Below, in pieces: positions 12,098-48,975 of a stretch of DNA of 64,000 bases. The first letter of the stretch is position 1; each line of letters opens with the position of its first letter. The stretch is taken from the NCBI GenBank assembly GCA_021814695.1, contig JAKAHY010000001.1, positions 45,278-109,277 on the forward strand, given 5' to 3'. The notes beneath the pieces are model-generated. The model was not told where the DNA came from. It saw only the letters and a list, made by a program, of their open reading frames with translations, and ran no database searches. A program made the position numbers and the translations under genes. This DNA is from a bacterium (lineage in GTDB: Bacteria > Patescibacteriota > Minisyncoccia > UBA6257 > JAGOQP01).

Positions 12098-12261
12098 AAC
12101 CTTATATTAAAAATGGCTCCATTTTGTGGGGCCTTTTTTATTATAACACAAGTAGGCTTTTTGGCTATAAATCTATTGTTTACACGGAATAATTTGTGCT
12201 ACTATTTTGGCAGAACACTTTCGCTCGTTGACAATAAGGCGGGCCGAAAGGGAGGAAACTG

Positions 12262-25018: not shown

Positions 25019-26311
25019 TTAGGGTAAAACGACAACATATCTTGTGGGATTAAGGTCACCACCGTATGGCATTTTGGGGCCGCAAGTTTTACTTCCGCCG
25101 ATATAGAACGTTTCCGAATCATAAACTCCAAAATGAACGTGAGGGCCGGTAGCATATCCGGTCTGGCCGACATAACCTATAACTTCACCACGCTGAACCT
25201 GTTGACCATCCTTTACAGCTATCAACGACATATGTCCGTATATGGTCGTCAGCCCATCATAATGCCGAATAGCTACATATTTTCCGTATGCTCCCTTATA
25301 ACAATATCTGTCTTGATTGTCGGTGCTTTGCACAACTCCGTCTGCGGCGGCAACAATGGGAGTTCCTATGGGGGCGGATATGTCGATTCCGTTGTGCCAC
25401 TTGCCTCTGTAGGCCGATCTTGCAAAGTTTGTAGCTCCATATCCTTGGGTCAGTATCCCCTTCACCGGAAGAGTTAAAAGACCGGGAACGCTTGCGGGAA
25501 GATTTTTATAATTGATTTGCTGACGAAGAGTAGATTCTATTTTTTCTATTTCCACGGCTATATCGGACTGGCGCTGCTCCAATTGTTTAATTGAATCCTG
25601 ATAGGTTTTTTCCTGGGACTTGGTCTGATTTAAAAGTTGTTTTTTCTGTTCAAGCAGATCGGAAGCGATTATTTTCTTACTTTGAAGGTTTGAGACCTCT
25701 GTTTGTTTTTGATCTTTAGTGTCGGCGCTGTCGGCAATAGCTCTGTTGAGATTTTTTTTGGAATCATTTAACTGTTTTATGCTTATGAGCAGATTACTGT
25801 TTAAATCCTGCAAAGCCTGAACTTCAAATATGCCTTCGGATAAAGTTTTGTTTTTTAAAAAAGCGACAAGCGGATTGTCATTTTCCTGTTGCTGAATCTG
25901 ACGCAAAACTTCGTTCATGGCGGCAGTTTTTAAATCAACATCGGATTCGGCATCTTTTATATTTTGCTGCATAATCTCGATTTGAAGCGTTAGCTTATCA
26001 ATGGCAATCTTACTGGCCTCAATTCCGAGATTAATCTGACTGACGTTGGAATCGATTTGATTAACGTCGCTTGTAAGTGATTTCTTCTGATTTTGGGTTT
26101 CTGCGAGCTTTTGCTGCTGATCCTGGAGTTGTTGGTTTATGAGCTTTAACTCCTCGTTTTTCGCGTCAATTTGGCCCTGTAGAGCGTTTTTATCGATAAC
26201 TTGAGCTTCTACCCCACTTCTTATATAAGGCAAAAATACCAGTATTACGATACTAAATATTAATGATGTCAATATACGAAAAAACACTTTTTTAATGTCA
26301 AAAGAGGTCAT
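25019..26311 (-). CDS. M23 family metallopeptidase with N-terminal coiled-coil (EnvC-like)
   Basis: Signal/TM segment, a long coiled coil, and a C-terminal LytM motif GKWHNGIDISAPIGTPIVAAADGVV...GPHVHF. Confidence 0.85.
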   Translation of the reverse strand: MTSFDIKKVFFRILTSLIFSIVILVFLPYIRSGVEAQVIDKNALQGQIDAKNEELKLINQQLQDQQQKLAETQNQKKSLTSDVNQIDSNVSQINLGIEASKIAIDKLTLQIEIMQQNIKDAESDVDLKTAAMNEVLRQIQQQENDNPLVAFLKNKTLSEGIFEVQALQDLNSNLLISIKQLNDSKKNLNRAIADSADTKDQKQTEVSNLQSKKIIASDLLEQKKQLLNQTKSQEKTYQDSIKQLEQRQSDIAVEIEKIESTLRQQINYKNLPASVPGLLTLPVKGILTQGYGATNFARSAYRGKWHNGIDISAPIGTPIVAAADGVVQSTDNQDRYCYKGAYGKYVAIRHYDGLTTIYGHMSLIAVKDGQQVQRGEVIGYVGQTGYATGPHVHFGVYDSETFYIGGSKTCGPKMPYGGDLNPTRYVVVLP

Positions 26312-26313: not shown

Positions 26314-27756
26314 TTATTTTGCCAGAGCGGCATCTATGCGCTTTAGAGATTCTTTTTTTCCAAGTACTTCCAATATTTCAAACGGACCGGGAGAATTCTT
26401 TAATCCCGAAAGGGCCACCCTCAAAGGCCACAGAGACTCTCCCCTGCCAATTGACGCCGCAACGGGCATTAACTTCTCTTCAAGTACTGTTTTTGAAAAA
26501 TCTTTCGGTTCAAGTTCGTTAATTGCATCGCGCATTCTTGTAAGGCTTTTTTTTGTAGATTCCGGAGAATCATTTTTCCATTTTAACAGTTCCACATCGT
26601 ATTCCGGAATTTCAAACAAAAACCCCGCCCTGTCTTTAAATTCCGAAAGCACTTTCATTCTCTCCTGTTCAATTGCCAACGCTTTGATAAACTTCTTATC
26701 GTCAGAAAGCCACGCTTCGGGAACATATTTTTTCATCTTTTCGGAAAGCTCTTCTAGAGGCATTTTTTTTATGTATTGGGAATTAAACCAATCCAGTTTT
26801 TCCACATTGAATATTGCTCCGGCTTTCTGGACTCTTTTTAAACTGAATTTTGAAACCATTTCTTCTATGGTCAGGATTTCTTTTTCGTCATCGGGATGCC
26901 AACCGAGAAAGGCCAAAAAATTTACCAATGCTTCCGGGATATATCCGGACTTAAGATATTCATCAAATGACGTCTCCATTTTTCTCTTGGACATCTTGCT
27001 CCTGTCGGCATTTAACACGAGTGGAAAATGGGCGTATTTGGGAGGTTCTATTCCCAGCGCTCGTTGAATAAGTATCTGCTTAGGCGTATTGGTTATATGA
27101 TCCTCGCCTCTGATGACGTGGGAAATTTTCATCAAATAATCGTCGATAACGACAGCCAGATTATACAGCGGAGACTGCTCGTTTCTTGCTATTACAATAT
27201 CTCCTATAGTATCGGAATTTACGACAATTTTTCCGCGAATAATGTCGTTAAATTCAATATCCACATTGGACGGGGCAATTAATCTGATAACGCCTTCTTT
27301 GCCGTCTTTTTTATTTTTAGCGATTTGCTCCGGTGAAAGCGATTTACATTTACCGCTGTATTTCGGAAAAAGACCGGATGATAACATTGCCTGGCGTTCC
27401 TGCTCAAGCTCTTCTTTGGTGCAAAAACAAAAATAAGCTCTTTTTTCATCAAGAATTTTTTTTATAAAATCTCTATAAATTTCCGTTCTCTCACTCTGTC
27501 TATAAGGACCATACTGGCCGCCGATGTCCGGACCCTCATCCCAAAGAAGCTTTAGAGCCTTAAAACCTTCAAGAATGTCGTTTTCATAAATAGGAAGAGA
27601 TCTTTCGGTATCGGTATCTTCGACTCTCACTATAAACTTACCCCCTTCTTTTTTGGCAAAAAGATAGTTAAAAAGAGCCGCTCTTATAGTGCCTAAATGA
27701 AGATAGCCCGTAGGTGAGGGCGCAATTCTGACGCGAATTGGCGTTAAATCAGCCAT
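26314..27756 (-). CDS. gltX: Glutamate--tRNA ligase
   Basis: PSPTGYLHLGT (HIGH-type) and KMSKR. It overlaps the M23 start (ATGA). Confidence 0.9.
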   Translation of the reverse strand: MADLTPIRVRIAPSPTGYLHLGTIRAALFNYLFAKKEGGKFIVRVEDTDTERSLPIYENDILEGFKALKLLWDEGPDIGGQYGPYRQSERTEIYRDFIKKILDEKRAYFCFCTKEELEQERQAMLSSGLFPKYSGKCKSLSPEQIAKNKKDGKEGVIRLIAPSNVDIEFNDIIRGKIVVNSDTIGDIVIARNEQSPLYNLAVVIDDYLMKISHVIRGEDHITNTPKQILIQRALGIEPPKYAHFPLVLNADRSKMSKRKMETSFDEYLKSGYIPEALVNFLAFLGWHPDDEKEILTIEEMVSKFSLKRVQKAGAIFNVEKLDWFNSQYIKKMPLEELSEKMKKYVPEAWLSDDKKFIKALAIEQERMKVLSEFKDRAGFLFEIPEYDVELLKWKNDSPESTKKSLTRMRDAINELEPKDFSKTVLEEKLMPVAASIGRGESLWPLRVALSGLKNSPGPFEILEVLGKKESLKRIDAALAK

Positions 27757-27989
27757 GAAGATATTTTAACACGAAAATAGGCCAGATAAAAGGCCTGTTC
27801 TTGGACAAATCCCGCACCTTTTCTCAACCATCTATTGATAAGAACAATAAATTTCACGTCACTAAAATAATTATTTTTTTTCATATGAGTAAGTTGATTA
27901 CAATGACCGACTCCCTGGCAAAACCCGAGTTGATAAAAGGTGCGGGATAAAAAAATGAGCTCTTTATGCCGAGCCCAAGGCCAAGGTTC

Positions 27990-28064
27990 TGGAGTGAGGG
28001 GCCGGATTTGAACCGGCGATGATGGTCTTGCGGACCATTGCCTTCCCCGCTTGGCGACCCTCAC
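27990..28064 (-). tRNA. tRNA-Cys (anticodon GCA), CCA encoded
   Basis: The rc gives acceptor GTGAGGG/CCCTCAC, D-stem GCC/GGC, anticodon stem ATGGT/ACCAT with loop CCGCAAG (C33, unusual), T-arm GCCGG-TTCAAAT-CCGGC, discriminator T, and CCA. Confidence 0.7.
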
Positions 28065-28129: not shown

Positions 28130-29281
28130 TTATTGTCCCGTCGCCAGATTTATCAGTTCTTGAGCAATAATTTCGGCAGCTTGAGGCTTAGCAAATGTGC
28201 CTGCGGCCTGAGACATAGATTGATATTTTGCTTTATCACTTAATATCAGATTAACCTGGTCGAAGAAAAGGGACGATTTCAAATTAGATTCTTCAATAAC
28301 TACGCAGGCGCCATTTCCCGCATATTCATACGCATTAAATTTCTGATGGTCTCCGGCGGCACTATCAAGTGGAATCAGTATGGAAGGCTTTTTAAAAACA
28401 GCTATTTCAAATATTGCTCCGCTTCCGGCTCTTGAAACTATAATATCCGCAGCGACATAAGCTTCTCTGATTTCTTTTTGGAGGAAATCCACTATTTTAT
28501 AGCGGTCACGTTCAACCGGTATAAAATGTTCGGTTGAAACGGCTAGTTCGTTTTTAAACTGAGCGAAATTCTGAGGACCCACCTGATGGAGTACCTGATA
28601 TTTACCGACGAATTCTTTGACGTTCTCGATCATAAATTCATTTATCTTTGCAGACCCTTGGGAACCGCCGATGACAAGAATCAACGGCAAGGTCGGGTCA
28701 AAGCCGAATATCTTTTTTGCTTTTTCAGGAGTCAGATCCGGAGCGGGTTCAAGCAGGTCGGCTCTTATCGGATTGCCCGTGAGCGCTACTTTTTCTCCGG
28801 AAATTGATTCAAGTGTTTTTTCAAACGACACGGCAATTCTTTTTGAGAAAGGAACGGAAAATTTAGTGGAGAGTCCGGGAATCGAATCGGATTCATGGAT
28901 AAATACCGGTATGCGATAAAACCATGCAGCTACGACAACGGCTATTGAGCCCGTTCCTCCTTTGGAAAATACCGCGTCCGGCATTACAAAAAGTAATTTA
29001 ATAAATGATTGCAGAAATGCTAACGGAAGTTTGACGGCATCTATTATATTCAGAGGCGAAAGATAACGCCTTATCTTAAATGAAATAATGGATACAATTT
29101 TTATCTTAAGTCCGACAAAATCCGAAGCATATTGCCCGGCATTTCCGAAATAATACAGCTGAAAATCCGATTCCGGATTTTGTGAAAGTTTTATTTTTAC
29201 CTGTTCGGCAACCGCCAGTAACGGATAAATATGCCCTCCGGTTCCGCCTCCGGTAAATGCAATGCGAATTTGATTTCTCAT
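28130..29281 (-). CDS. murG: UDP-GlcNAc:undecaprenyl-PP-MurNAc-pentapeptide GlcNAc transferase
   Basis: GGGTGGHIYPLLAVAE glycine loop and a GT28 C-terminus. Confidence 0.9.
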   Translation of the reverse strand: MRNQIRIAFTGGGTGGHIYPLLAVAEQVKIKLSQNPESDFQLYYFGNAGQYASDFVGLKIKIVSIISFKIRRYLSPLNIIDAVKLPLAFLQSFIKLLFVMPDAVFSKGGTGSIAVVVAAWFYRIPVFIHESDSIPGLSTKFSVPFSKRIAVSFEKTLESISGEKVALTGNPIRADLLEPAPDLTPEKAKKIFGFDPTLPLILVIGGSQGSAKINEFMIENVKEFVGKYQVLHQVGPQNFAQFKNELAVSTEHFIPVERDRYKIVDFLQKEIREAYVAADIIVSRAGSGAIFEIAVFKKPSILIPLDSAAGDHQKFNAYEYAGNGACVVIEESNLKSSLFFDQVNLILSDKAKYQSMSQAAGTFAKPQAAEIIAQELINLATGQ

Positions 29282-29316
29282 TAGTTCAATTATAACAAAG
29301 AATACTTCTTTTGGCT

Positions 29317-30486
29317 CTATTCGTTTGAGGAATGGCGCGAAACATTGGCAATAATTCCTATCATCGTTAAAGTAACGGCCATTGACGTGCCTCCATAACT
29401 GATAAACGGAAGCGGTACTCCCGTGAAAGGAAGAATTCCCGCATTAGCCGATATATGAATTATGGCTTGGATTGCAATAATCGACGAAAATCCGGCCACA
29501 CTAAGCCTGGCAAAATCATCATGACTATGAAGAGCGAGACCAATTCCTCTCCATAGCAATATCAGAAACAACAGAATAATAACCATAGACCCGGCAAAAC
29601 CGAATTCTTCGGCAATAACGGCAAATATCGAATCCCCCATCGGTTCGGGTAATAAGCTGTATTTACTCGTCGATTTTCCGAAACCCACACCCGTAAGCCC
29701 TCCCGTTCCGATTGCCATCAAGGATTGAGAGACGTGAAAATTATCACTGGGAGCATTTTTTATCAGAAGAGCGGGAAAATATTTTTGCGCTATAGGATTC
29801 CATATCGGAGCAACTCTCGCCAGACGATATGGAGTAACCGCCGCCAATCCGGCAACAATAACCGCTCCCACGGCAAGTGTCAGAAGAAAATGAACGAGAA
29901 CCTGTCTAAAAGAATTTCCGCTTAAAAAATACATTACAAGGCCGGCTCCGATTATAATCATAGCCATAGTTGTCGCCGGCTGTGCAAAAATCAAAACGCC
30001 CGTAATAATCGAAACAAACACAAAAATTCCGTAAGCCTTCCATCCCTCGCGTATTTTTTTCATACGGGTACCCGAAAATAGCGAAGCGACATATAAAATA
30101 TAGGTTAGTTTCAAAAGTTCCGACGGTTGAAAAGAAAATATTCCGAGATTAATCCATCTGTGAGATCCTTTCACCTCCCTTCCCAACGGAGTAAAAACTA
30201 AAAGAAGAAGAATAAGGTTTATAACAAAAAGAATCAGAGCCGCTTTTTTCCAGCGTCTGTAGTATATGAAAAATCCCGCAGCAAATCCGATGAGCCCCGG
30301 AATCAATCCTTTAAACAATTGTTGCTTGAGGTAATACCCGGTGTCATTAAAATTTACTTTACCGATATCCGATGAAGCCGATGCCAAAGCCAAAAAACCA
30401 ACCAGGAGCAAAAAAAGTACAATGCCTAAAATAACATAATCGGGTTTGTGGCCAGATTGAATTGAAAATGCCTTGCCGAGCCTCAT
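29317..30486 (-). CDS. ftsW: SEDS family peptidoglycan polymerase FtsW/RodA
   Basis: 10-TM SEDS pattern. It lies in the dcw cluster between murG and mraY. Confidence 0.85.
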   Translation of the reverse strand: MRLGKAFSIQSGHKPDYVILGIVLFLLLVGFLALASASSDIGKVNFNDTGYYLKQQLFKGLIPGLIGFAAGFFIYYRRWKKAALILFVINLILLLLVFTPLGREVKGSHRWINLGIFSFQPSELLKLTYILYVASLFSGTRMKKIREGWKAYGIFVFVSIITGVLIFAQPATTMAMIIIGAGLVMYFLSGNSFRQVLVHFLLTLAVGAVIVAGLAAVTPYRLARVAPIWNPIAQKYFPALLIKNAPSDNFHVSQSLMAIGTGGLTGVGFGKSTSKYSLLPEPMGDSIFAVIAEEFGFAGSMVIILLFLILLWRGIGLALHSHDDFARLSVAGFSSIIAIQAIIHISANAGILPFTGVPLPFISYGGTSMAVTLTMIGIIANVSRHSSNE

Positions 30487-32021
30487 TTTTTGGATTTCTT
30501 TAATAGTCGGCCACTCCCCTGTCTACCGGCGGATGCGCCTTTTTGAGCGGTAACTAATTTACCGTCAGATACCTCCACTGTTCCGTTTACAATCACGGTT
30601 GTTATATCAAAATCTTTTGTAGCCAATACCAGGTCAGCATAGTATCCGTCACTGATAAATCCCCTTCCGTCCAGATTAAATATGGTGGCTGGCAGTCCCG
30701 TAATTTTTGCGACACTTTTTTCAACACTGATATTTTTTTGGGATGCAATTTTCAGATAAGTCGGAAATGTTTTATATGCGCGCTCCGGTTTGAAAGTCTT
30801 GAATATATCGTCAAAGTTGGGGCTATTTGTGGATATTAGAGAACGGGAAATCAACAAAGCTTTCAAAACCTCTTCCTGATTCAGATTTTCATATAATACA
30901 ACTCCTCTAAGCTTGGTTGCTTCCATTAACGCAAGCATCGCCTGAGATTCGCTTAATTCCCTATTTTTTGCAAAATCATAAAGTGTTTTTCCGTTTAAGA
31001 ATTCAACGCCCGGAGCATTCAAAATAATCACTTTTTTGGGATCTACTTTGGGAAGTCCGGATGCTATCTTTTTCCGTATTTCCTTATCCTTAATTTTTTC
31101 TATAAATAATGAAGGATCATCGTTTTTAAGATAATCGGGAACAAATGTATCCAAAGAAACCGCGCTTGCGCTGAACGGATTAATGTCAAAATAAACATTG
31201 GCTTTAGCCGCTTTTTCTTCTATCAACGCCAGAGATTTTTCATACTCAGTCTCAAATCCTATGAGAGGCCGAAAGTGGCTGATTATGGAAGTAACCGACG
31301 TTTCCTGGCTGACACGGATAGTTTCTTCTACCGATTCAAATAATTTTTCCCGTTCATTTCTTAAATGAGTGGCGTATACGCCCTTATATTGATGTAAAAC
31401 ATCCAGCAATGCCCTAATTTCATGATAAGTCGTATTTTGATAAGGATAATATCCCAATCCGTCCGACATTCCGAAGGCGCCTTCTTCGATTGCCGAGGAT
31501 AACACTCCGCGGAAAACTCTCAGTTCGTTGGCTGTAAGATTTCTGAATTCGTTCGGGTTTTTTATTATATCTTCACGGATGACTTTATGTCCCACAAGAG
31601 TGCCGATGTTGACTCCCATTCCATAACTTTCAACAACCTTAAGAAACTCGGCGACTCCTCTCCAATTTACATTTATACGATTGGTTCTTGTCCAGCTATC
31701 CAAATGCGCAAGATTTGTCCCGTAAAATGATGGCGCCAATGAAAATCCGCACTGGCCAAGCATTATACTGGTTACGCCTTGGAGTAAAAAATCCTTATGT
31801 AAAGGAGACTGAAACATTGTCAGATATCTGTCTGAACTGGCGTTGGGGTCTATAAAACCGGGGCACAAATACCCTTCGTTTCCAAAGATGACATTATCAG
31901 CTTTGTATTGAGGAAAGCTTCCTACCGCCAGAATTTTTTCATCACGCATTAAAACGTCTCCCTTTATAGGAGGTTTTCCGCTTCCGTCAATTACGATGAC
32001 ATTTTTAATAAGCGTTACCAT
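30483..32021 (-). CDS. Amidohydrolase-fold protein (D-aminoacylase-like) with HxH metal motif replaced (PGFIDPNASSD)
   Basis: N-terminal IDGSG...DV.I.DE.I.AVG...PGFID matches the amidohydrolase-3 pattern, but the HxH is PNA. Downstream His residues (THLRNE, SHF) are retained. The gene occupies the murD position in the dcw cluster. Confidence 0.7.
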   Translation of the reverse strand: MVTLIKNVIVIDGSGKPPIKGDVLMRDEKILAVGSFPQYKADNVIFGNEGYLCPGFIDPNASSDRYLTMFQSPLHKDFLLQGVTSIMLGQCGFSLAPSFYGTNLAHLDSWTRTNRINVNWRGVAEFLKVVESYGMGVNIGTLVGHKVIREDIIKNPNEFRNLTANELRVFRGVLSSAIEEGAFGMSDGLGYYPYQNTTYHEIRALLDVLHQYKGVYATHLRNEREKLFESVEETIRVSQETSVTSIISHFRPLIGFETEYEKSLALIEEKAAKANVYFDINPFSASAVSLDTFVPDYLKNDDPSLFIEKIKDKEIRKKIASGLPKVDPKKVIILNAPGVEFLNGKTLYDFAKNRELSESQAMLALMEATKLRGVVLYENLNQEEVLKALLISRSLISTNSPNFDDIFKTFKPERAYKTFPTYLKIASQKNISVEKSVAKITGLPATIFNLDGRGFISDGYYADLVLATKDFDITTVIVNGTVEVSDGKLVTAQKGASAGRQGSGRLLKKSKK

Positions 32022-32055
32022 AATTGTTTTTAAAATTCGAAAATATTTCCGGAAA

Positions 32056-33105
32056 TTAACGCAATATCACACGGGAAAGGAAAAAAAGCACCAAACCCAA
32101 ACCGTTTGAGATAGCGGAGATTATCCAGAACCTCATAGTCACTCTGGACTCGGGCCATCCCAAGGCTTCAAAATGATGGTGAATGGGAGTGGATATAAAA
32201 ACTTTCTTTTTGAAAAATTTCTTTGATATCGTCTGGATAATCACCGAAATCGATTCAATGACGAGAATCGGAGCAAAAAACGGCAGGAACAAAACGGTAT
32301 TGGTCAGCATAGCGACAACTCCCAATGTTATTCCCAGCGCCATTGAGCCGGTATCTCCCATAAAAAATCTTGCCGGATAAATATTAAACCAAAGAAAAGC
32401 GAGCAGTGCTCCTACAATCATAGAAGAAAATGCGGCCAAATCATAGCGTCCCAAAACGAAAGATACCACCGCCAAAGACCCGAAAGAAAAAAGAGAAACC
32501 CCTCCCAAAAGTCCGTCCAAGCCATCGGTGATATCGGCCGAAAAAGCCGTAGCCACGATGATAAAAAGGAACAGTGGAATATACCAGCCGTCTATTTCAG
32601 TAAGTCCCAAAAAAGGAACATATAGCGTTGACCAGCCAAGTTTAACCGCAAACCAGTAAGCTCCGGCGAGAGCGATTATAAAATACATCAGCAGCTTGTG
32701 TTTTATGGATATTCCGCCTCCATGAGGTCCAATCCTTTTGACTCCTAAAATGTCGTCGGTTAATCCCAAAATTGCGGCAATGAGCATAATTGCTATCGGC
32801 AAATAAGTTTGACCCCTGTCTATAAAATTCAATCGAGACCAAAATCCTCCGAAAAAATAATTCAATAAAAAAAAGACCGCCGATAATCCCAATACCGTGA
32901 CCCATATTATTACACCCCCCATTGTCGGCGTCCCCTCTTTTTTTTGATGCAATGAATAAAAAACCGGAGCACTTTCACTGCTACGGATTTGTTTACCGGC
33001 TTTGTATTTATACAGAATGCGGGTTACTACCGGCGTAAGCGAAAGCGCCACAAAAAAAGATATTCCGGTTAAAATCAAAACTCTTATAACTTGGGAGCTT
33101 GTCAT
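32056..33105 (-). CDS. mraY: Phospho-N-acetylmuramoyl-pentapeptide transferase
   Basis: 10-TM MraY. It carries the GLTDDILG, DGLDGL and HHHFE motifs. Confidence 0.9.
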   Translation of the reverse strand: MTSSQVIRVLILTGISFFVALSLTPVVTRILYKYKAGKQIRSSESAPVFYSLHQKKEGTPTMGGVIIWVTVLGLSAVFFLLNYFFGGFWSRLNFIDRGQTYLPIAIMLIAAILGLTDDILGVKRIGPHGGGISIKHKLLMYFIIALAGAYWFAVKLGWSTLYVPFLGLTEIDGWYIPLFLFIIVATAFSADITDGLDGLLGGVSLFSFGSLAVVSFVLGRYDLAAFSSMIVGALLAFLWFNIYPARFFMGDTGSMALGITLGVVAMLTNTVLFLPFFAPILVIESISVIIQTISKKFFKKKVFISTPIHHHFEALGWPESRVTMRFWIISAISNGLGLVLFFLSRVILR

Positions 33106-33116
33106 GGATAAAAATT

Positions 33117-34166
33117 CTATTGGATACAGGATACTATTTTGGCGGTATCTCCGAATCTGTCCGGACTGCCAAGTACCGCTATAAATACCATTTTACCATC
33201 TTTACTGAATAATGACACGAGATTTCCTTCCGATTGGTCTATGTAACCGGTCTTTCCTCCGAAAAAATCTTTTCTTCCGGCAAATTCGTTTATATTTGTC
33301 AGCGTTGTTCTTTTACCGGTATTTTTGTCGCGGATAGTATTTGTTTTTTGACGGGTAATATCAAAGATGATCGGATATTGCTGTTTAATATAAGACACCA
33401 AAAGAAACAAATCGTGCGCCGTTGATTGATTCAGATAAGAAAGTCCCGAGGGTTCATAATAAGTTGTCTGACTCATAGATAAATCTTTTGCTTTCTGATT
33501 CATTTTTTGCACGAAAGCATCTCTTCCGAAACTATCAGCCAGAGCAAACGCGGCGTCGTTACTCGAAATTGTAAGCATCGCTTTAAGCAAGTCGTTGGCG
33601 CTGTATGAAGATCCGGTCGGAAGAGTTGAATTTCCGTCAGTCTCCTTGCTGATTTCCGGAGTAACGGTAATTACACTGGACTGATTGATATTTTCCAAAG
33701 CAACAACGGCAGTCATTAATTTGGATATGGAAGCTATAGGCCACCGGTTCTGTGAATTTTTTTCGTATAAAATACTTGCCCCCGAAATAGTCTGAACCAA
33801 AAAGTTTTTGGCTTGAATGGGAACACACAACTCGTTTGTTGTGGACGTCGCTTCCGTTATTATGGATTTTTCGACGATCGATGTATCGGTCTGATTTTTT
33901 TCTATTGAATTTACGGTCGGATTCAAATTTGAGTCAGAAGTGGAAGACAGGGGTTCCTGAGAAGTAGCAATGGAGCCTTGAATGTCGGCTATCAGGGATT
34001 CGTTATTTTTGACTGCTGCCGGTGACGATTCTAAATGAACCGAGTCTATAATAACCGCCTGTTGGCCGATTCCATTATGGTCAACTTGAGAAAATACGTT
34101 CGTATCCCTAAAAGCATAGGAAAATACGAGAATTATAATTAATAGGATTAATGCTTGATATCTCAT
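33117..34166 (-). CDS. dacA: Serine-type D-Ala-D-Ala carboxypeptidase (S11, PBP5-like)
   Basis: SxxK (ASISKLMT), SxN (SSND) and KTG (KTGY). Confidence 0.8.
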   Translation of the reverse strand: MRYQALILLIIILVFSYAFRDTNVFSQVDHNGIGQQAVIIDSVHLESSPAAVKNNESLIADIQGSIATSQEPLSSTSDSNLNPTVNSIEKNQTDTSIVEKSIITEATSTTNELCVPIQAKNFLVQTISGASILYEKNSQNRWPIASISKLMTAVVALENINQSSVITVTPEISKETDGNSTLPTGSSYSANDLLKAMLTISSNDAAFALADSFGRDAFVQKMNQKAKDLSMSQTTYYEPSGLSYLNQSTAHDLFLLVSYIKQQYPIIFDITRQKTNTIRDKNTGKRTTLTNINEFAGRKDFFGGKTGYIDQSEGNLVSLFSKDGKMVFIAVLGSPDRFGDTAKIVSCIQ

Positions 34167-34177
34167 AAAAATATAAA

Positions 34178-34789
34178 TTAGGGAGTTGAAGCGGTTTCAG
34201 CCAAAGGAGATTCCTGAGGTTCGGCCGATTTTGTTTCCTCGGTTCTTTCGGAAAAATACTGATCCTTAAGCTTTTGATATTCATCATATTTAGGCATTTT
34301 GCTTACGTGGTCAATGCCCATAAATTTTAGAAATTCAAAGCTTACCTCATATTCAAATGCCAGTCCTTTTGCTGTTTTTCTTTCAATAAGGCCGCGGATA
34401 AGAAGACTTCTTAAAATAAAACTCGAATTGACTCCACGCAAAAAATCTATCTGAGCTCTGGTCACCGGACCGAAATATGAAATTATTGAAAGCGTTTCCA
34501 ATGCAGCGGGTGTCAATTCTTCCTTCAAATCTTCGGTGATGAATTTTTCGACAAGAATAGAGTGTTCCGGCTTTGTCGCCAATATATATTTACCGGAATT
34601 TTCCATCAGGATTATCCCCCTTTTGGAATCGGAATATTGTTCCCTTAACATGGCGGCGGCATTTTCTACTTCTTCTTCGCTCACTTTCAAAGTTGAGGAA
34701 ATTTTTTTCTTATCCAACGATTCTCCAAAAATAAAAAGAAGGGCTTCCATCTGGCTGGCTATTTTTTCGATATTTGAAGAGTCATTCAT
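34178..34789 (-). CDS. scpB: Segregation and condensation protein B
   Basis: EALLFIFGESL and the ScpB wHTH pattern. It is downstream of scpA. Confidence 0.85.
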   Translation of the reverse strand: MNDSSNIEKIASQMEALLFIFGESLDKKKISSTLKVSEEEVENAAAMLREQYSDSKRGIILMENSGKYILATKPEHSILVEKFITEDLKEELTPAALETLSIISYFGPVTRAQIDFLRGVNSSFILRSLLIRGLIERKTAKGLAFEYEVSFEFLKFMGIDHVSKMPKYDEYQKLKDQYFSERTEETKSAEPQESPLAETASTP

Positions 34790-34793
34790 AAAA

Positions 34794-35543
34794 TTATGCG
34801 GATTGGTTTAATTTCTCTATTTTAATTTCATCAAATAATTTATCCTGGCTGACAGCAAAAGTATTTTCTCTCAACAAATGAAGCAATGCAAGAAATATCA
34901 CGATGACTTCATTTTTTGTTTTGCGGCCGATAATTTCGGAAAATTTAGAAATGCCTTGGGCAATTTTTTTGGTGACTTCTGATATTTTATCTTCAAGCGT
35001 AAAGAGTTGGCGCTTGATTGTTTCCTTATCCAGAAAAAATGAACCTAGGGTGTTGAGCAACCGATCAAGTGATTCGCTCATATTTTTGAGGGTAAGTTTT
35101 TTAGGAGGATAGAAAACAACCGGTTGGGAAAGAAGCATGGTTCTTGAATAAAGCCTCGAAGATTTTAACCACTCGTTCTTTACCGAAGCAAACATAGGTT
35201 TGAGCTGGCTGTAGATTTTCAGACGCGCTTCCAAATCGTGCATTTCATTTTCTTCCTCTTCGGTAAGGGAGAGCTCCGGCAGAAGCGCTTTTGATTTTAT
35301 CAAAATAAGCTGGGATGCGACAACTAAAAAATCCGCAAGTATCCTCAACGCCTGCGCCTTTGTCTCTTCATCGGAATCGTTCTCCGTCTTTTGAGTTTCT
35401 TCCTTTATGGAGTTTACATATAACAAAAAATCAGCCGTAACCTCAGCAAGGCTGATTTGAGTTATATCCATCTTTTTGGCTTCTATTAACTCCAGCAGTT
35501 TTTCAAGCGGTCCCGAGTAAGCAAGAGTCTTCACCTCGTACAT
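34794..35543 (-). CDS. scpA: Segregation and condensation protein A
   Basis: LEKLLELIEAKKMDITQISLAEVTADFL N-terminus, at kleisin size. Confidence 0.8.
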   Translation of the reverse strand: MYEVKTLAYSGPLEKLLELIEAKKMDITQISLAEVTADFLLYVNSIKEETQKTENDSDEETKAQALRILADFLVVASQLILIKSKALLPELSLTEEEENEMHDLEARLKIYSQLKPMFASVKNEWLKSSRLYSRTMLLSQPVVFYPPKKLTLKNMSESLDRLLNTLGSFFLDKETIKRQLFTLEDKISEVTKKIAQGISKFSEIIGRKTKNEVIVIFLALLHLLRENTFAVSQDKLFDEIKIEKLNQSA

Positions 35544-39501: not shown

Positions 39502-40629
39502 TTAACTTCTTTTTCTTGAAAGCAGAACTCCTAAGAGAACGAATATCGCTATCAGCAGTATTGCCCCAAACGAGGCCAGAGACGATGAGGTTACCGAAAC
39601 CACGGATGCCTGCAAAGGAGAGTAAGAGCCGGCTGTCGGGGTGTAATAATACGTTCCTTGGTTGGGATAATTTCCCAAATTCTGGGCATAAGGATTTGAG
39701 TAATATGTATATGAAATAGTCGGCTGAGTGTAATATGGTTGGCTGTCATAATAAACGGGCTGTGTCTGAGGGTTTGTGGCGTAAATATATTGAGGCACAT
39801 ATGTAACCGTCGGAGTGGTCTGAACCGGTTGGGTATAGACATAGTTTGTCGGCGGAGTGTAGGTGTAATTTATCGGCTGAGTATAATTGTTGTAGTTGTA
39901 ATACGATGAGCCGGTTGTGGTAAACGAAAGTGTCTGTCCATAAGACGTAAGTCCGTTATTTTGGAGAACCGCCTTAAAGTAATAAGTCGTTCCGGAATTT
40001 AAATTTGTCGCCGAATATCTGAAAAACGAATTGGACGAATTAGTCCGGTAATAATCAGATGTGCTTATAACCGTAGTCAGGCTTTTTTGATTTAAGTTTG
40101 AATAATCGGTTCCGTATTCAAACCATCCCAAGCTTTGCGAGTTGGTGGTTGCGGCAAAACCTATAAGCGTAGCCGAATTATTTGTTATATCCGTAGCCGC
40201 ATTAGTAGATACCGAAACATTGCCGGAGTTTGTCGTCCCATAACTGGTGGTTGAAAACGAAAGAATATTTCCCTGGCTGGTACCGTATTGGTTCTGCGCG
40301 CTTAACCGAAAGTAATAAGTCGTTCCCGACATAAGTCCCGAGACAGCCATTGAAACATTGTTCTGCGAATATGATCCGTTCATCGTCTGAGACGACGTGA
40401 AATTGCCAAGTGATTGAGTAGTCCCGTATTCAAAATAATAAGACGTCTGATAGCCGTTAGGATTCAATTGTCCGTATAAAGTTGCGCTATTATCGGAAAC
40501 GATAGTGGCCTGATTTGTCTGCGCAAAAGGCGCTCCCGCCTGTTGGGAATGAGTCACTCCGGCAGTAATAAAGCCCCCTAAAACGACCACTGCCACAATT
40601 GCCAATATGGCTGATTTCTTTATATTCAT
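39502..40629 (-). CDS. Cell-surface protein with three ~95-aa Fn3/Ig-like repeats, Y/T/P/Q-rich linker and C-terminal TM anchor
   Basis: Signal peptide. Repeats end in TTYYF(R/K)..QN..GTSQG..LSF(S/T)TT. The C-terminus is LASFGAILLIAIFVLLGVLLSRKRS. Confidence 0.65.
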   Translation of the reverse strand: MNIKKSAILAIVAVVVLGGFITAGVTHSQQAGAPFAQTNQATIVSDNSATLYGQLNPNGYQTSYYFEYGTTQSLGNFTSSQTMNGSYSQNNVSMAVSGLMSGTTYYFRLSAQNQYGTSQGNILSFSTTSYGTTNSGNVSVSTNAATDITNNSATLIGFAATTNSQSLGWFEYGTDYSNLNQKSLTTVISTSDYYRTNSSNSFFRYSATNLNSGTTYYFKAVLQNNGLTSYGQTLSFTTTGSSYYNYNNYTQPINYTYTPPTNYVYTQPVQTTPTVTYVPQYIYATNPQTQPVYYDSQPYYTQPTISYTYYSNPYAQNLGNYPNQGTYYYTPTAGSYSPLQASVVSVTSSSLASFGAILLIAIFVLLGVLLSRKRS

Positions 40630-44096: not shown

Positions 44097-44167
44097 TGGG
44101 GGGTCGTCTAACGGTAGGACATGGGCCTTTGAAGCCCAGTATATAGGTTCGATTCCTATCCCCCCAG
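44097..44167 (+). tRNA. tRNA-Gln (anticodon UUG), CCA not encoded
   Basis: Acceptor TGGGGGG/CCCCCCA (U1:A72), D-stem GTC/GAC, anticodon stem TGGGC/GCCCA with loop CTTTGAA, T-arm ATAGG-TTCGATT-CCTAT, G73. A terminator hairpin follows at ~44171-44200. Confidence 0.8.
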
Positions 44168-44593
44168 CAAAATAAATACACTTTTGCGGTGTATTTTATT
44201 TTGCGGGGAAAAAAGCAAACTGCTTTGCTTTTGTCAGGGATTCGAACGACGGAGCATGTTCCGCTCAGCAGAGCGTAACGCGAGTCGGTGTCTAGACCAA
44301 TTCTACTCGACGGAGTAGAATTGAGTTGAAGGAGAATTCTTGTCCCCCAGCCAACTTGAGCGGAGTTATTCCGATCGAGACATATCATAACAAAAGACAC
44401 GCGCCGAGAGGCGTGCGTCTTTTTTTGTTATTTATCCTACCAGATTAGATCTTTTATACCAGGTTTATTTTTTACTACTCTGAACCCCTACTCTCCCCAA
44501 GAATTTTTATCAGAATTTAAAGCCTCATACCAAAGTTCTGAAGATTCTCATCATTTTGGCTGTCAAGTATGTAAAACTATTTTACATATATAT

Positions 44594-44622
44594 TTGCATT
44601 TGACTTAAAAATATGCTATAAT
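44594..44622 (+). promoter_or_regulatory. Sigma70-like promoter of lexA-like operon (TTGCAT-17-TATAAT), near-leaderless
   Basis: -35 at 44594-44599 and -10 at 44617-44622, only 6 nt before the ATG at 44629. The palindrome ATGTAAAA-CTA-TTTTACAT at 44569-44587 lies just upstream. Confidence 0.45.
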
Positions 44623-44628
44623 GGAATT

Positions 44629-45276
44629 ATGAATAAAATTCAAATAGAGCTTTTGAACCTCTCTAAGCACCAGGATTTAGGCTCAATGAGCCTACGCCAA
44701 ATAGCAAAGATTATTGGGGTTGAAAATAAGCCCCAGATTGTAAAACACCACCTTTTACAGCTAGAAAAGGCCGGATTACTGCAAATAAACCTCAAAAAGG
44801 GCTTCATAAGGCCTGTTAGCAGGGGTTTTGGGCAGGATTCTGGCAAGAATCAAGTATATTCACTTCCTATCGTAGGAGCCGCAAATTGTGGTCCAGCAAC
44901 CATATTTGCAGACGAGAGGATTGAAGGATATTTGAAAGTATCGTCAAAACTGCTCCCGAGAAAAAAACATGACCTTTTTGTCCTTATTGCCGAGGGGCCG
45001 TCAATGAATAAGGCTGAAATTCGTGAAGGTGTTGTAATTGAAGACGGTGATTTTGTTGTTGTAGATAAATCATACAAAAATCCAAAAAACGGAGATATTA
45101 TTGTAGCAGTAATAGACGGAATGGGAACAATCAAAAAATATAGAGAGGATAAGAAAGAAAAACTCATTATTCTTGAATCAGAATCCACTGAAAACTATTT
45201 GCCCATATTTATTCATGAAGGTGATGACTTCATGATAAGCGGAAAGGTCATTGATGTAATTAAGAAACCTAGATAA
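44629..45276 (+). CDS. lexA: LexA-like repressor (wHTH + S24 autopeptidase domain)
   Basis: N-terminal LexA-type wHTH. C-terminal S24 with Ser in GPSMN and Lys in TIKKY. The candidate Cys-Gly cleavage site (AANCGP) is UmuD-like. Confidence 0.8.
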   Translation: MNKIQIELLNLSKHQDLGSMSLRQIAKIIGVENKPQIVKHHLLQLEKAGLLQINLKKGFIRPVSRGFGQDSGKNQVYSLPIVGAANCGPATIFADERIEGYLKVSSKLLPRKKHDLFVLIAEGPSMNKAEIREGVVIEDGDFVVVDKSYKNPKNGDIIVAVIDGMGTIKKYREDKKEKLIILESESTENYLPIFIHEGDDFMISGKVIDVIKKPR

Positions 45277-45281
45277 ATACT

Positions 45282-48080
45282 ATGGCGGGTAAAATTAAAT
45301 TCCGGGTTCTGGAAGATAAACCTCTAGAGAATATAGACGGCGATTATTTTGGCCATCAGGAAATAGCAAACAGCATTATTGAGGTTATCAAAGAAGCACC
45401 CAAACCTTTTAATATAGGATTGTATGGACAATGGGGTGTAGGGAAAACTACCATATGCAAAATTATAAAGGATAAATTTTCAAACGAGAATGAGTATGAA
45501 GTAGTTTACTTCGATACGTGGAAATATCAAAGAGATTCTTTCCGTAGGCAATTTTTGATAAATTTGGACCAAGAGTTAAGGTTAAATCTTAACTATAAGG
45601 AAAAACTAAATCAATCACTGTCCATTCCGTACAATTTAAAATGGATGGATAGTATAAAATTATTTCTGGGAAATTTTTTATTCAGAACATTAACGATTTT
45701 AATATTTGCTTTTATTGCAGTTTTAATTTTTAGACAATTTATTACACCAATTCTTTCTGCAAATTATATAGATCTAGCAAAAAGACTCTCAGATCTTGGA
45801 ATTATTGGTATATTAATAACGTTTATACTTGAATCAATAAAACAATTTCAGGGTGAAAAAACTTTTAACAGAACAGATTCGGCTGAGGGATTTGAAGAAT
45901 ATTTTATAGAAGTTCTTTCTAAAATCCAGAAGAAAAACTTGATATTAATAATAGACAACCTAGATCGTCTTTCAAGCGTCGAAGCAGTGCGTTTGCTGGG
46001 AGATATTAAAACTTTTTTATCTGACGACAAATATCATGATGAAAAGGTAGAAAATAAAACTGTATTCATAATGCCTTGTGACAACAAGGCTCTAAATGAC
46101 CAGTTGTCTAAAGAATATGGTCCCGGTTTTGATACAGAGGAGTACTTGAGAAAATTGTTTAACTATTCATTCAAAATACCGAAATTTCTTAACATTGAAT
46201 TAGATAAACTTATCATTGATAAGTTAAATCAAACGTTAATTGACGAATTTCATGATAACTATGATTTAGTATTTATTCTGAGTTACGCATTCAGGGATAA
46301 CCCTCGAGAAATAATTCAATTCATTAATTCGCTGATCTCTCTTTACTTGTTAGCAAAAGAACGAGGCATTTCAAGAATAATAGAAAGGGATCATATAGCT
46401 TTTTTAGCTAAGGTACTTGTCTTACGAATGAAGTGGCCTACTCTGTACACGAATATAGAAAATCATATTCTTCGAACTGGCGATAAATTATCAGAGATTG
46501 TTGATAGCTTAGAAAATAGTTCAAATAAGGATCAAATAGTTGAATTTTTAGAGAGGACTTCTCCAGTTAATGATGAAGAGTACCAGGATATTTATTTTTC
46601 TATTAGACAAAGTGATGAGCAAAAAATGATTCCTGAATGGGATAGTTTCGTTTCTTCTTTATTGGACGGACGAATACCAGATGCCAACAAAATATATGAA
46701 TCAATAAAATCTAATAACAAAATAGAACAACTCGGAAAATTAATAATTGATTATTGTAGACGAAACCAAAAAAACGAGAATCTTCTATTCAATATATTTC
46801 TCTCATCCCAATCAATAATTCCACCTGACGATCTTAAACATTTTCAGGAAATGTTTCTTTTAGTATTTAAGAATATACATGATGATGTATTCGTGAAATA
46901 TTTAGATAAATTAAATTTTAACAGATTTTTTAGTAAAGGTCTGCAAGGATTGTCTGCTGCTAATAAAAAGGAACTTAGTAGTAAACTGGTTTCTATAATG
47001 AATTACGCCTCATCAATAGAAAGTATAGAAAAAGACAGAATTAAATTCCTTAAGACATTATTCGAAGTTTTAAACTCTGAAGAAAACAAAGGTAATTTTA
47101 ATTTAAATGATAAAAAAATAGTTAGTGCAAAAAACAACTTCATTGAACATATTAAATATCAAACAGTTTTTCCAGAGTCTGAGAAAGGGGCTAACCTTGA
47201 TATCAATACTCTAAAAAATATCTTGGATGTGATATCTGCGCTGAAACCTTTTAGCTCAGAATTTTATCGTTCCGGAATTTATCTCTTAAATAATTTATTG
47301 GGATGGCCACCATTGGTTGAAAATGATGATGCGAGAATCCTTGTCCTGGAGAAGAGTTTAGATTTTCTAGATAAACAAGCGATACCCTCTCGTGATGACG
47401 GTAGCGTTATTGGTCCAATTCTTAATACATTCACTACGCGGATTTTTAGTTGGTACAGTGCTCAAAAAACTATTGAAGAAAGATCTTTGTGTATAAAAAT
47501 ATTCCAGAAAATAAATGTTGATTTGAATCCTAGTAGGGACGCAGTAAATACATATATTAAAGATTATGTAGCGGATACTAGTAATAACTCTGACATAATA
47601 CTAAAAACACTTGGTAAAGAATTCTTGGTTACAGATAGTTTTGCTCGGTCTGGTTTAATAGAAAGGACAAAGACAAAAACAGATCTTTTAATCAGATTAT
47701 CTATAAAAAATAAACTAACTGATGATGAAAAGGCTCTTGTGTTTAATAGTTTACTTAATTCTGCTAACGAGGCCTTAATATTTTTGGAATATATAAATTA
47801 TAAACTTCCTCACGAACACGGTGGTGATTCCAACTTTCTTAAGAATATCATTTCGAGAATGATAAATTCTAGCATCTTTACCGATGCCGAACTCCTTAAT
47901 AAATGGTTGGAGGCAATTAATAAACTCGTCATACCTTCTGACTTACTCGATCTATTTACTAAGAAAATGAGACAAGCTAAGACGATGTCAGATCAGCACG
48001 CGGAGGTTATCTCTGACTTTATTTCAAAGAATTCAAAAATTTTCGGCGACCTTATAGTTAATGAATTCAAAACTAAATAA
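45282..48080 (+). CDS. KAP-family P-loop NTPase (932 aa) with intramembrane insert
   Basis: Walker A GLYGQWGVGKTT. Two TM helices are inserted after Walker A (LFRTLTILIFAFIAVLIF..., GIIGILITFILE), the KAP hallmark. Walker B LILIIDNLDR. Long alpha-helical C-terminal region. Very AT-rich. Confidence 0.8.
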   Translation: MAGKIKFRVLEDKPLENIDGDYFGHQEIANSIIEVIKEAPKPFNIGLYGQWGVGKTTICKIIKDKFSNENEYEVVYFDTWKYQRDSFRRQFLINLDQELRLNLNYKEKLNQSLSIPYNLKWMDSIKLFLGNFLFRTLTILIFAFIAVLIFRQFITPILSANYIDLAKRLSDLGIIGILITFILESIKQFQGEKTFNRTDSAEGFEEYFIEVLSKIQKKNLILIIDNLDRLSSVEAVRLLGDIKTFLSDDKYHDEKVENKTVFIMPCDNKALNDQLSKEYGPGFDTEEYLRKLFNYSFKIPKFLNIELDKLIIDKLNQTLIDEFHDNYDLVFILSYAFRDNPREIIQFINSLISLYLLAKERGISRIIERDHIAFLAKVLVLRMKWPTLYTNIENHILRTGDKLSEIVDSLENSSNKDQIVEFLERTSPVNDEEYQDIYFSIRQSDEQKMIPEWDSFVSSLLDGRIPDANKIYESIKSNNKIEQLGKLIIDYCRRNQKNENLLFNIFLSSQSIIPPDDLKHFQEMFLLVFKNIHDDVFVKYLDKLNFNRFFSKGLQGLSAANKKELSSKLVSIMNYASSIESIEKDRIKFLKTLFEVLNSEENKGNFNLNDKKIVSAKNNFIEHIKYQTVFPESEKGANLDINTLKNILDVISALKPFSSEFYRSGIYLLNNLLGWPPLVENDDARILVLEKSLDFLDKQAIPSRDDGSVIGPILNTFTTRIFSWYSAQKTIEERSLCIKIFQKINVDLNPSRDAVNTYIKDYVADTSNNSDIILKTLGKEFLVTDSFARSGLIERTKTKTDLLIRLSIKNKLTDDEKALVFNSLLNSANEALIFLEYINYKLPHEHGGDSNFLKNIISRMINSSIFTDAELLNKWLEAINKLVIPSDLLDLFTKKMRQAKTMSDQHAEVISDFISKNSKIFGDLIVNEFKTK

Positions 48081-48595
48081 TGATTCTTTTTAATAATCAA
48101 TTTAATAAAAAGACCTATCAAATTATAGCTTCTGTGACGATTGCTGTAATTTTGATCTTGGGATTCTTGGTGTTAGGTAATTACTTTTCTGAAGTAATGC
48201 TAATAGTTAGTTTTATTGTTTTTGGTATTTTACTTTTATTTTTTACGATCGCTGCCGGTCTGGCTGTTTTGAAAGCTCTGTTTTATGTGGCAGCAGAAAT
48301 TTCTCTGTTAATATATTTGTCTAAATCATATTGTGAAGTACCCGCTTCCAAACTGACGCTCGCTAGCAATAATGCACTAAAGAGTCTGCTAGTTGTTGGT
48401 GGGTTGTATATTGTGATTAGTTTTGGAAAATCTCTGATAGATAAGGTAAAAAGCGACTATAAAAATATTGAAAGTGAAAAGTGGTCCTGGGAAAAAGTAA
48501 CTACGGTAGCTTTCTATTTGTTATTTGCATTTCTGATTGTTTGGCAAATTTATAGAGTAATTGGACCGATAATTGTCAATTTGTGTATATATTAA
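48080..48595 (+). CDS. 4-TM membrane protein translationally coupled (TAATG) to KAP NTPase
   Basis: Its ATG overlaps the KAP stop by 1 nt. Four hydrophobic helices. Confidence 0.6.
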   Translation: MILFNNQFNKKTYQIIASVTIAVILILGFLVLGNYFSEVMLIVSFIVFGILLLFFTIAAGLAVLKALFYVAAEISLLIYLSKSYCEVPASKLTLASNNALKSLLVVGGLYIVISFGKSLIDKVKSDYKNIESEKWSWEKVTTVAFYLLFAFLIVWQIYRVIGPIIVNLCIY

Positions 48596-48639
48596 AAATT
48601 ATTCAGTAAAGGTCATAATTAATAATAAAACAAGACACC

Positions 48640-48936: not shown

Positions 48937-48975
48937 AAAGGTCGATATTGATTATTTAATAAATTAAAAACATCA

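Follow-up and report, generated by a model that had tools for sequence, protein, structure and literature searches.

A D-aminoacylase-fold protein lacking the alpha-site histidines and the general-base aspartate is encoded directly upstream of ftsW in Patescibacteria

A stretch of 64,000 nucleotides (nt) from a bacterium of the Patescibacteriota (Minisyncoccia; UBA6257; JAGOQP01), corresponding to positions 45,278 to 109,277 of contig JAKAHY010000001.1 in assembly GCA_021814695.1 and hereafter called the window, encodes among its cell-wall genes a protein of 512 amino acids (aa) with a D-aminoacylase fold, which we designate X. According to the list of open reading frames (ORFs), the minus strand carries the run scpA-scpB-dacA(S11)-mraY-X-ftsW-murG-tRNA-Cys, in which all genes are co-oriented and the intergenic gaps from scpA to murG are 4, 11, 11, 34, −4 and 35 nt (Table 1). 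X is co-oriented and tightly packed with genes of the division and cell wall (dcw) cluster, for which the canonical order is mraY-murD-ftsW-murG. An earlier description of this DNA made from its letters only, referred to below as the sequence-only reading, had reported a tightly packed mraY-X-ftsW-murG order on this strand with a 4-nt overlap between X and ftsW, and the ORF coordinates match it exactly.

The gene neighbourhood of X was analyzed in relatives found by a pattern scan, with each GTDB species represented by one genome. The scan returned 491 relatives of X; the neighbourhood counts given here refer to the best 80 of these 491 loci, individual loci being designated by L numbers. All 80 were from metagenome-assembled genomes (MAGs) of Patescibacteria, mostly labelled as Paceibacteria/Parcubacteria lineages, and the lineage labels of X loci comprised Paceibacterota, Wolfe-, Harrison-, Colwell-, Brenner- and Liptonbacteria, and Minisyncoccia. 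The X loci include the closed genomes AP024682.1, OY970175.1, and OY970382.1. X occurs in Patescibacteria, mainly in lineages of the class Paceibacteria (Parcubacteria, now Minisyncoccia). The ftsW gene was located directly downstream of X in 73 of the 75 loci with room for it, at X identities ranging from 39 to 73%, and also in the more divergent locus L090, whose X is 29% identical to that of the window. The commonest X-ftsW spacing among the relatives was −4 nt, and ftsW was followed by murG and then usually by gltX and an M23 peptidase gene. The linkage of X with ftsW is far beyond chance.

The upstream side was much more variable. The mraY gene was directly upstream of X in 30/71 loci and 0.6-2.7 kb upstream, with inserted ORFs between them (a reverse transcriptase, for example), in 10/71, and it was absent upstream in the remaining 31/71, where genes for a ComEC-metallo-beta-lactamase (ComEC-MBL) protein, TrmD, a type IV coupling protein or SerRS were found instead. 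In L090 (a 521-kb JGI contig, positions 1784-14562), the order was ComEC-MBL-X-ftsW-selR-acyP-murG-gltX-M23-femAB-murE-...-murC, with two genes inserted between ftsW and murG and none between X and ftsW. In L089, ComEC-MBL was followed further on by gltX-M23-femAB-murE, and the X-ftsW-murG trio appears to be missing as a unit. The stable unit is X-ftsW(-murG), which survives rearrangements of everything upstream. The sequence-only reading had placed X in a "murD slot"; this description is true of the window and of 30/71 loci, but it overstates the link with mraY, as 31/71 loci have unrelated upstream genes and it is X-ftsW-murG, not an mraY directly upstream of X, that forms the invariant linkage. 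The appearance of a murD slot arises where the X-ftsW(-murG) unit abuts the mraY block, and the mraY-X adjacency may be secondary because the most divergent ortholog, that of L090, has ComEC-MBL upstream. The mraY-X junction was also found to be an insertion hot spot, with a reverse-transcriptase ORF in L021 (9017-9916), an ORF of similar size in L045 (7833-8735), and ORFs of 394-395 aa without any Pfam match in L005 (8651-9835) and L025 (8827-10014).

The matches of X to Pfam models were weak, with 20.8 bits for Amidohydro_3 (below the cutoff of 29.7) and 27.4 bits for Amidohydro_1 (above the cutoff of 25, over a C-terminal stretch only). In contrast, X was matched over its full length by sequences of the Protein Data Bank, namely 9G5M (7.9e-46), 1M7J (3.4e-41), 9KB1 (1.8e-37) and 3GIP (2.7e-30). 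An AlphaFold2 model built on a family alignment of 66 sequences reached a mean predicted local distance difference test (pLDDT) score of 91.6 and a predicted template modelling (pTM) score of 0.92. When this model was compared with known structures by Foldseek, 9G5M, 1M7J and 3GIP were retrieved with TM-scores of 0.77-0.85 and E values of about 1e-40 to 1e-42, whereas the next tier, made up of dihydropyrimidinases and then of the CRMP/DPYSL pseudoenzymes, was found at about 1e-17, a gap of 20 orders of magnitude. The model contains the features of subtype V of the amidohydrolase superfamily, i.e., a beta-sandwich formed by the N- and C-terminal parts, a (beta/alpha)8 barrel, and an inserted alpha/beta lid. 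The homology with D-aminoacylase (EC 3.5.1.81; subtype V; 1M7J, 9G5M) extends over the full length and the three-part fold, at 24-27% identity. X is a homolog and a descendant of the deacylases of N-acyl-D-amino acids that has retained their whole fold, and the D-aminoacylase-like character proposed in the sequence-only reading was borne out by this comparison with the 1M7J class. No transmembrane or other hydrophobic segment was found in X, which predicts a soluble cytoplasmic protein. A role of its basic C-terminal tail as a membrane anchor was considered and rejected, given that the net charge of the tail is not conserved and that there is no transmembrane segment; the C-terminal G-x-I/V-L-R-K motif looks, in our own reading, like the last beta-strand of the fold.

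In the active enzyme, the metal ligands are H62, H64, C91, H216, and H246 (9G5M numbering), the n-site comprises Y188 and the general base D362 (D366 in 1M7J), and a carboxylate clamp at the c-site is formed by Y279, the backbone of S285, and R373 (PMC12149444). In the statement of Lai et al. (2004) quoted in that article, the beta-site metal activates the enzyme and a second metal at the alpha site inhibits it. The residues of X were mapped to 9G5M and 1M7J through a HMMER alignment (Table 1). The loss of the HxH motif, claimed in the sequence-only reading, was confirmed, but the register "PNA" given there was not, the residues aligned with the motif being N60-A61-S62. The motif is not present in a shifted position either, as the proper alignment shows none and no His was found anywhere in residues 54-66 (PGFIDPNASSDRY). 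The later His positions that the same reading described as retained are present as H219 and H249. A further change, beyond the HxH observation, is the loss of the general-base Asp, replaced by N399. X thus resembles D-aminoacylase in keeping the bridging Cys, both beta-site His, the n-site Tyr and the c-site Arg, and differs from it in having NxS for HxH, Asn for the general-base Asp and, in the window, Asn for the c-site Tyr.

Table 1. Features of the X locus. Positions are those of the window; residues of X are listed with their counterparts in 9G5M (and in 1M7J where given).
Feature	Position	Strand	Counterpart or evidence
X, 512-aa D-aminoacylase-fold protein, predicted to be cytoplasmic, without alpha-site His pair and general-base Asp	30483..32021	-	
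Former HxH motif, residues 54-64 PGFIDPNASSD, now N60-A61-S62	31830..31862	-	HMMER alignment to 9G5M and 1M7J
N60 of X			H62 (alpha-site metal), lost
S62 of X			H64 (alpha-site metal), lost
C91 of X, in residues 88-97 LGQCGFSLAP	31731..31760	-	C91 (bridging Cys), kept
Y191 of X			Y188 (n-site), kept
His219 of X	31365..31367	-	H216 (H220 in 1M7J; beta-site metal), kept
E223 of X			E220 (pocket), kept
His249 of X	31275..31277	-	H246 (H250 in 1M7J; beta-site metal), kept
R251 of X			K248 (pocket), basic character kept
N281 of X			Y279 (c-site, Tyr of PYP motif), changed
Asn399 of X, in residues 397-400 STNS	30822..30833	-	D362 (D366 in 1M7J; general base), lost; GSDG in active enzymes
Arg414 of X	30780..30782	-	R373 (c-site clamp), kept
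X/ftsW ATGA overlap, X stop TGA within ftsW start ATG	30483..30486	-	Sequence AAAAAATGAGG
ftsW (SEDS peptidoglycan polymerase)	29317..30486	-	PF01098 7.7e-83
murG (lipid II synthase)	28130..29281	-	PF03033 and PF04101 (both GT28 domains)
mraY (phospho-MurNAc-pentapeptide transferase)	32056..33105	-	TIGR00445 204.4 bits, cutoff 192
S11 D-Ala-D-Ala carboxypeptidase (DacA-like)	33117..34166	-	PF00768 1.9e-39
scpB	34178..34789	-	PF04079 6.2e-40
scpA (segregation and condensation protein A), first gene of the run	34794..35543	-	PF02616 8.7e-16; 4 nt to scpB
tRNA-Cys(GCA), directly after murG	27990..28064	-	ARAGORN; Rfam RF00005 52.7 bits
Terminator-like hairpin and T-run	27956..27977	-	Best-looking minus-strand match in terminator scan
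gltX (glutamyl-tRNA synthetase), conserved downstream neighbour	26314..27756	-	PF00749 6.2e-101; after murG in most relatives
M23 peptidoglycan endopeptidase with coiled-coil N-terminus, conserved downstream neighbour	25019..26311	-	PF01551 2e-30

The states of these positions were then counted in 81 species-level orthologs of X. None of them had His at both HxH positions: position 60 was Asn in 66/81, Asp in eight and His in four, while position 62 varied between D, S, N, E, and T, with no conserved acidic replacement for the lost Asp. Position 399 was Asn in 70/81 orthologs and Asp in only two, the general-base Asp being absent from 79/81. The other elements were largely conserved, with C91 in 77/81, H219 and H249 each in 78/81, Y191 in 74/81, and R414 in 66 of the 75 orthologs having a residue there; the position of the c-site Tyr (N281 in the window) was Tyr in 41/81 and Asn in 21/81. 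At the sequence level, a putative one-metal Cys91-His219-His249 site is thus kept, together with Tyr191 and Arg414, in about 95% of lineages. X is found in databases under the labels "amidohydrolase family protein", "N-acyl-D-amino-acid deacylase", and "hypothetical protein". The annotation of X as a deacylase in these genomes is probably wrong, because HxH and the general-base Asp, two defining features, are both missing.

Several orthologs have also lost the beta-site ligands. L044 and L062 have Gly for Cys91, Gln or Arg for His219, and Asn for His249, and L067 has Asp for Cys91 and Asn for His249, whereas L053 shows a partial loss of the metal site (Arg for Cys91 and Tyr for His219). No metal ligand remains in the 477-aa X of L090. 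The X proteins of all five loci are full-length and encoded directly upstream of ftsW. In a neighbour-joining tree, the sequences without a metal site were scattered among sisters with an intact site, which implies that losses of the site occurred separately in no fewer than three lineages (L090, L067, and L044/L062). Such losses are hard to reconcile with an essential catalytic metal and fit a non-catalytic core job of X. A metagenome scan seeded with the X of L090 yielded no more than two canonical amidohydrolases, which are unrelated, retain HxH and Asp, and have no ftsW in their vicinity.

The ORF of X was intact, with a length of 478-533 aa, in 79 of the 80 loci, and the remaining copy (405 aa, in L015) ends at a contig end. 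X of the window was 72-73% identical to its closest orthologs, as compared to 63-70% for FtsW, 65-66% for MurG, and 77-79% for MraY. Selection was judged by amino-acid identity and by the proportion of non-synonymous differences (pN) relative to the neighbouring genes instead of by dN/dS, which saturation at synonymous sites put out of reach (proportion of synonymous differences, pS, about 0.75 between the window and its closest relatives). The pN of X was below those of FtsW and MurG. An identity above that of FtsW and MurG despite saturated synonymous sites indicates that X is under strong purifying selection, at least as strong as that acting on FtsW and MurG, and the active-site changes appear to be fixed rather than a sign of decay.

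We tentatively favour, with a confidence that falls a little short of even, the reading that X is a lineage-specific pseudo-deacylase that serves the FtsW-MurG lipid II module as a fixed cytoplasmic partner, in a binding or scaffolding role. Having lost both the alpha-site His pair and the general-base Asp, with which the active enzymes activate water, X would no longer hydrolyse its ligand. In most lineages, the pocket would be left with a single metal site and with the Arg/Tyr elements that grip the acyl carbonyl and free alpha-carboxylate of an N-acyl-D-amino acid, and it may still dock an N-acyl-D-amino-acid-like moiety with a free carboxylate. In this pathway, the obvious candidates for such a ligand lie in the stem peptide of UDP-MurNAc-peptide, lipid I, or lipid II, at either its L-Ala-D-iGlu junction or its D-Ala-D-Ala end. 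The first of these junctions corresponds chemically to the substrate of N-acyl-D-glutamate deacylase (N-acyl-D-Glu with a free alpha-carboxylate; EC 3.5.1.82; Bordetella Bb3285, 3GIP/3GIQ), an enzyme that has the same fold as X (TM-score 0.78-0.84), but is only 22% identical to it and, in 3GIP, has intact the catalytic residues that X is missing. X could thereby link the supply of precursors (MraY, MurG) to polymerisation by FtsW, as a subunit with a binding, regulatory, or scaffolding role, and lineages without the whole pocket would have retained the scaffold role only. Both the identity of the ligand and the contact with a partner are points that we infer.

This reading has parallels among known proteins. 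Like X, the CRMP/DPYSL pseudoenzymes have retained the fold under selection while losing catalytic residues; their metal residues are lost and they act through protein-protein contacts. The inactive dihydroorotase-like PyrC' subunit of the Pseudomonas aspartate transcarbamoylase is another amidohydrolase-fold pseudoenzyme. Both belong, however, to another branch of the superfamily (dihydropyrimidinase and dihydroorotase), and X differs from CRMP/DPYSL in mostly keeping one metal site and in having a partner suggested by gene linkage. By analogy, X would work most like these amidohydrolase-fold pseudoenzymes, while by descent it belongs to the D-aminoacylase branch, from whose enzymes it is also set apart by its fixed linkage with ftsW-murG and by the several orthologs devoid of any metal ligand. 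The sequence-only reading had left the choice between a divergent enzyme with an altered metal site, co-opted into the divisome operon, and a pseudoenzyme. Our results agree with an altered metal site and with a stable co-option of the protein into a dcw-type operon, and of the two alternatives the pseudoenzyme is favoured because the Asp is lost as well and because at least three lineages have lost their metal ligands with the gene still beside ftsW.

Several observations weigh against a pseudo-deacylase partner of FtsW and MurG. The evidence for ligand binding or for a contact with FtsW/MurG is indirect, and gene linkage is only correlative. The Cys-His-His triad, Tyr191, Glu223, and Arg414 are kept in about 90-95% of lineages, which also fits a working one-metal enzyme, and positions 60 and 399 have stayed Asn and have not drifted, a hint of some specific function, perhaps a chemical one. 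In E. coli NagA, a working enzyme, QxN takes the place of HxH. Finally, D-aminoacylase is activated by the beta-site metal alone in the statement of Lai et al. (2004) that is quoted in PMC12149444.

These points lend themselves to the first alternative, which we consider unlikely, although it is the most serious one: X may still be an enzyme, re-tooled as a mononuclear amidohydrolase using the beta site only, which would deacylate or trim a peptidoglycan-related substrate in the cytoplasm. This substrate could be the N-acyl-D-Glu or D-Ala bond of a precursor or of a recycled muropeptide, or an N-acetyl sugar acid. The latter is suggested by the carbohydrate de-N-acetylase PpOngB (9KB1/9KB3), which shares the subfamily fold with X (TM-score 0.80, E value 2e-41) and shows that the family, which thus holds a sugar deacetylase, can accept N-acetyl sugar acids; unlike X, PpOngB is an active enzyme of a chitin-oxidation pathway without dcw linkage. 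In most orthologs, the triad is conserved together with Tyr191, Glu223, Arg251, and Arg414, the states of N60 and N399 are not random, and the active enzyme uses the beta-site metal, the alpha site being inhibitory (PMC12149444, through its quotation of Lai et al.). Such an enzyme would nevertheless have to function without the general-base Asp in 79/81 orthologs, no conserved acidic residue having replaced it, and at least three independent lineages have lost all the ligands and the clamp Arg while the gene and its linkage were kept.

A second and clearly less probable alternative is that X is an unrelated passenger, involved for example in the handling of D-amino acids or metals, which stays upstream of ftsW through operon inertia or shared expression. 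The operons of Patescibacteria are compact and mixed, scpAB, gltX and a tRNA gene in the same run are not wall genes, and it is gene linkage that connects X with the wall. However, X-ftsW is the most stable junction of the region (73/75), although the upstream side was rearranged repeatedly and insertions occurred between ftsW and murG. The stop-start overlap being the commonest X-ftsW spacing also argues against a mere passenger, as does L089, where the genes that usually flank X-ftsW-murG appear to lack this unit between them.

The position of X in the window raised the question of the Mur ligases. None was found in the 64-kb window, either by regular expressions that included the P-loop or by phmmer with E. 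coli MurC, MurD, MurE, and MurF, and X itself has no Mur match in Pfam or NCBIfam, no P-loop, and no Mur_ligase_M (PF08245) or Mur_ligase_C (PF02875) domain. With the same four queries, the 80 X loci yielded a ligase with MurC as its best match in 13 cases, located further downstream than murG, and MurE in one, and nothing else. The four downstream MurC tested scored 369-415 bits with TIGR01082, above its cutoff of 335, and the ligase of L078 passes the cutoff as a true MurE. A bypass through Mpl was rejected, as the neighbouring ligases are true MurC and reach only 135-176 bits with the mpl model against a cutoff of 388.7. The L090 locus brings together X, ftsW, murG, femAB, murE, and murC within 13 kb, with no MurD or MurF there, and the related loci, about 1.6 Mb in all, revealed neither of these two ligases. 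The ORFs upstream of X were also considered as divergent MurD proteins and discarded, being SerRS, reverse transcriptase, type IV coupling protein, TrmD, ComEC, metallo-beta-lactamase-fold, or acyl-CoA dehydrogenase proteins, or without assignment. There was no MurD in the MraY neighbourhoods from which X is detached, and seven neighbourhoods inspected after a search with a Paceibacteria MurE contained FemAB, S11, M23, FtsA/FtsZ, or MurC, and never MurD. A FemAB-family gene was located immediately upstream of murE in L088 (2592-4905), L089 (9024-11305), and L090 (9032-11317), an adjacency that suggests interpeptide bridges in the peptidoglycan of Patescibacteria.

The presence of true MurC and MurE in X-bearing genomes means that D-Glu must be added to UDP-MurNAc-L-Ala. 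It could then be imagined that murD is lacking in these Patescibacteria and that X, by itself or together with a partner, takes care of the D-Glu step or bypasses it through an ATP-independent chemistry, e.g., in most lineages, by acyl transfer via Cys91 with His and Asn as a papain-like triad. X sits where murD is canonically located, between mraY and ftsW, both in the window and in 30/71 relatives; like MurD (UDP-MurNAc-L-Ala:D-Glu ligase), it concerns an acyl-D-amino-acid amide bond, and its ancestral enzyme class handles exactly the N-acyl-D-Glu bond made by MurD, which was missing from the related loci, including the X-ftsW-murG-femAB-murE-murC cluster. We nevertheless regard this replacement as very improbable. 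X has no homology with MurD and shows neither Mur-ligase nor ATP-binding features, making an amide bond in the absence of ATP runs thermodynamically uphill, and the gene is kept in lineages in which no Cys or His is left. The positional match concerns only about 42% of related loci, the mraY-X adjacency being absent from 31/71 loci and from the outgroup-like L090, and MurF is equally absent from the loci. The missing MurD near X is weak evidence because Mur ligases are scattered in the phylum and because the searches covered loci, not whole genomes; a recent review describes peptidoglycan genes as frequent, and complete "in some bacteria". From general expectation, murD likely lies elsewhere in X-bearing genomes. 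If the replacement were true, X would be a non-homologous substitute for an enzyme considered universal in peptidoglycan-making bacteria.

Lastly, the lost catalytic residues and the weak Pfam scores might evoke a pseudogene in decay or an artefact of annotation, but this idea is refuted by the ORF being intact in 79/80 loci, the 491 relatives, a pN below those of FtsW and MurG, and a confident structure model.

Among the neighbours of X in the window, the S11 carboxypeptidase has a hydrophobic stretch at its N-terminus and a long Ser/Thr-rich region, and the MraY protein (P0121) has an identical copy in public MAGs; the public MAG GCA_027423255.1 is a match for the window. The best NCBIfam match of FtsW was TIGR02614 (ftsW), with 304.6 bits, under the cutoff of 337.5, and MurG scored 229 bits with TIGR01133, under the cutoff of 250.25. 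The scpA-scpB-S11-mraY block (33105-35543 in the window) is itself conserved, and in relatives it stands alone, with pgk following (L082, 7718-11044; L083, 7566-11044), and represents an unusual pairing of chromosome-segregation and wall genes. The tRNA-Cys gene and the hairpin with its T-run probably close the scpA...murG transcription unit ahead of gltX, although promoter and terminator scans of the region gave no more matches than shuffled sequence.

The other genes of the window, such as ftsEX, obg, mltG/yceG, fmt, def, ctpA, and the gene for L9, look like the content of a small Patescibacteria genome. Several other features were observed. An NrfC-like 4Fe-4S protein is encoded before an NrfD fused to a cytochrome c7 domain (6371-8724), a respiratory-type membrane module that is unexpected in a Patescibacteria genome. 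A low-GC stretch (44097-50000; 0.31-0.36 versus about 0.41 elsewhere) starts at a tRNA-Gln(TTG) gene (44097-44168), encodes a KAP-family P-loop NTPase of 932 aa (45282-48080), and probably represents an integrated island. A 924-aa ORF (12262-15036) has no Pfam match. A 719-aa protein (53518-55677) combines a domain of the pilus-formation N-terminal type with a C-terminal PG_binding_1 domain and resembles peptidoglycan-binding surface proteins reported to be highly expressed in parasitic Paceibacteria (PMC10936435). Finally, a repetitive protein of 375 aa (39502-40629), rich in Ser, Thr, Tyr, and Asn, carries a signal-like segment at its N-terminus and a hydrophobic anchor at its C-terminus, and is probably a surface protein.

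No published description of X or of its linkage with ftsW was found in a full-text literature search. We regard X as a candidate pseudoenzyme offshoot of a known enzyme family whose association with the SEDS/MurG module is new and deeply conserved. The Paceibacteria form a very large and almost entirely uncultured group of ultra-small, host-dependent bacteria, and a gene kept this firmly is probably important because their genomes are minimal. X is more conserved than FtsW and MurG and lies beside ftsW in at least 73 species-level genomes, a linkage that suggests an undescribed accessory part of the wall-building machinery. If X is indeed a subunit of the lipid II/SEDS machinery that reads the stem peptide or acts as a scaffold, it would add a new type of component, a cytoplasmic one, to cell-wall synthesis and would be a clear example from bacteria of how a metabolic enzyme can become a pseudoenzyme partner.

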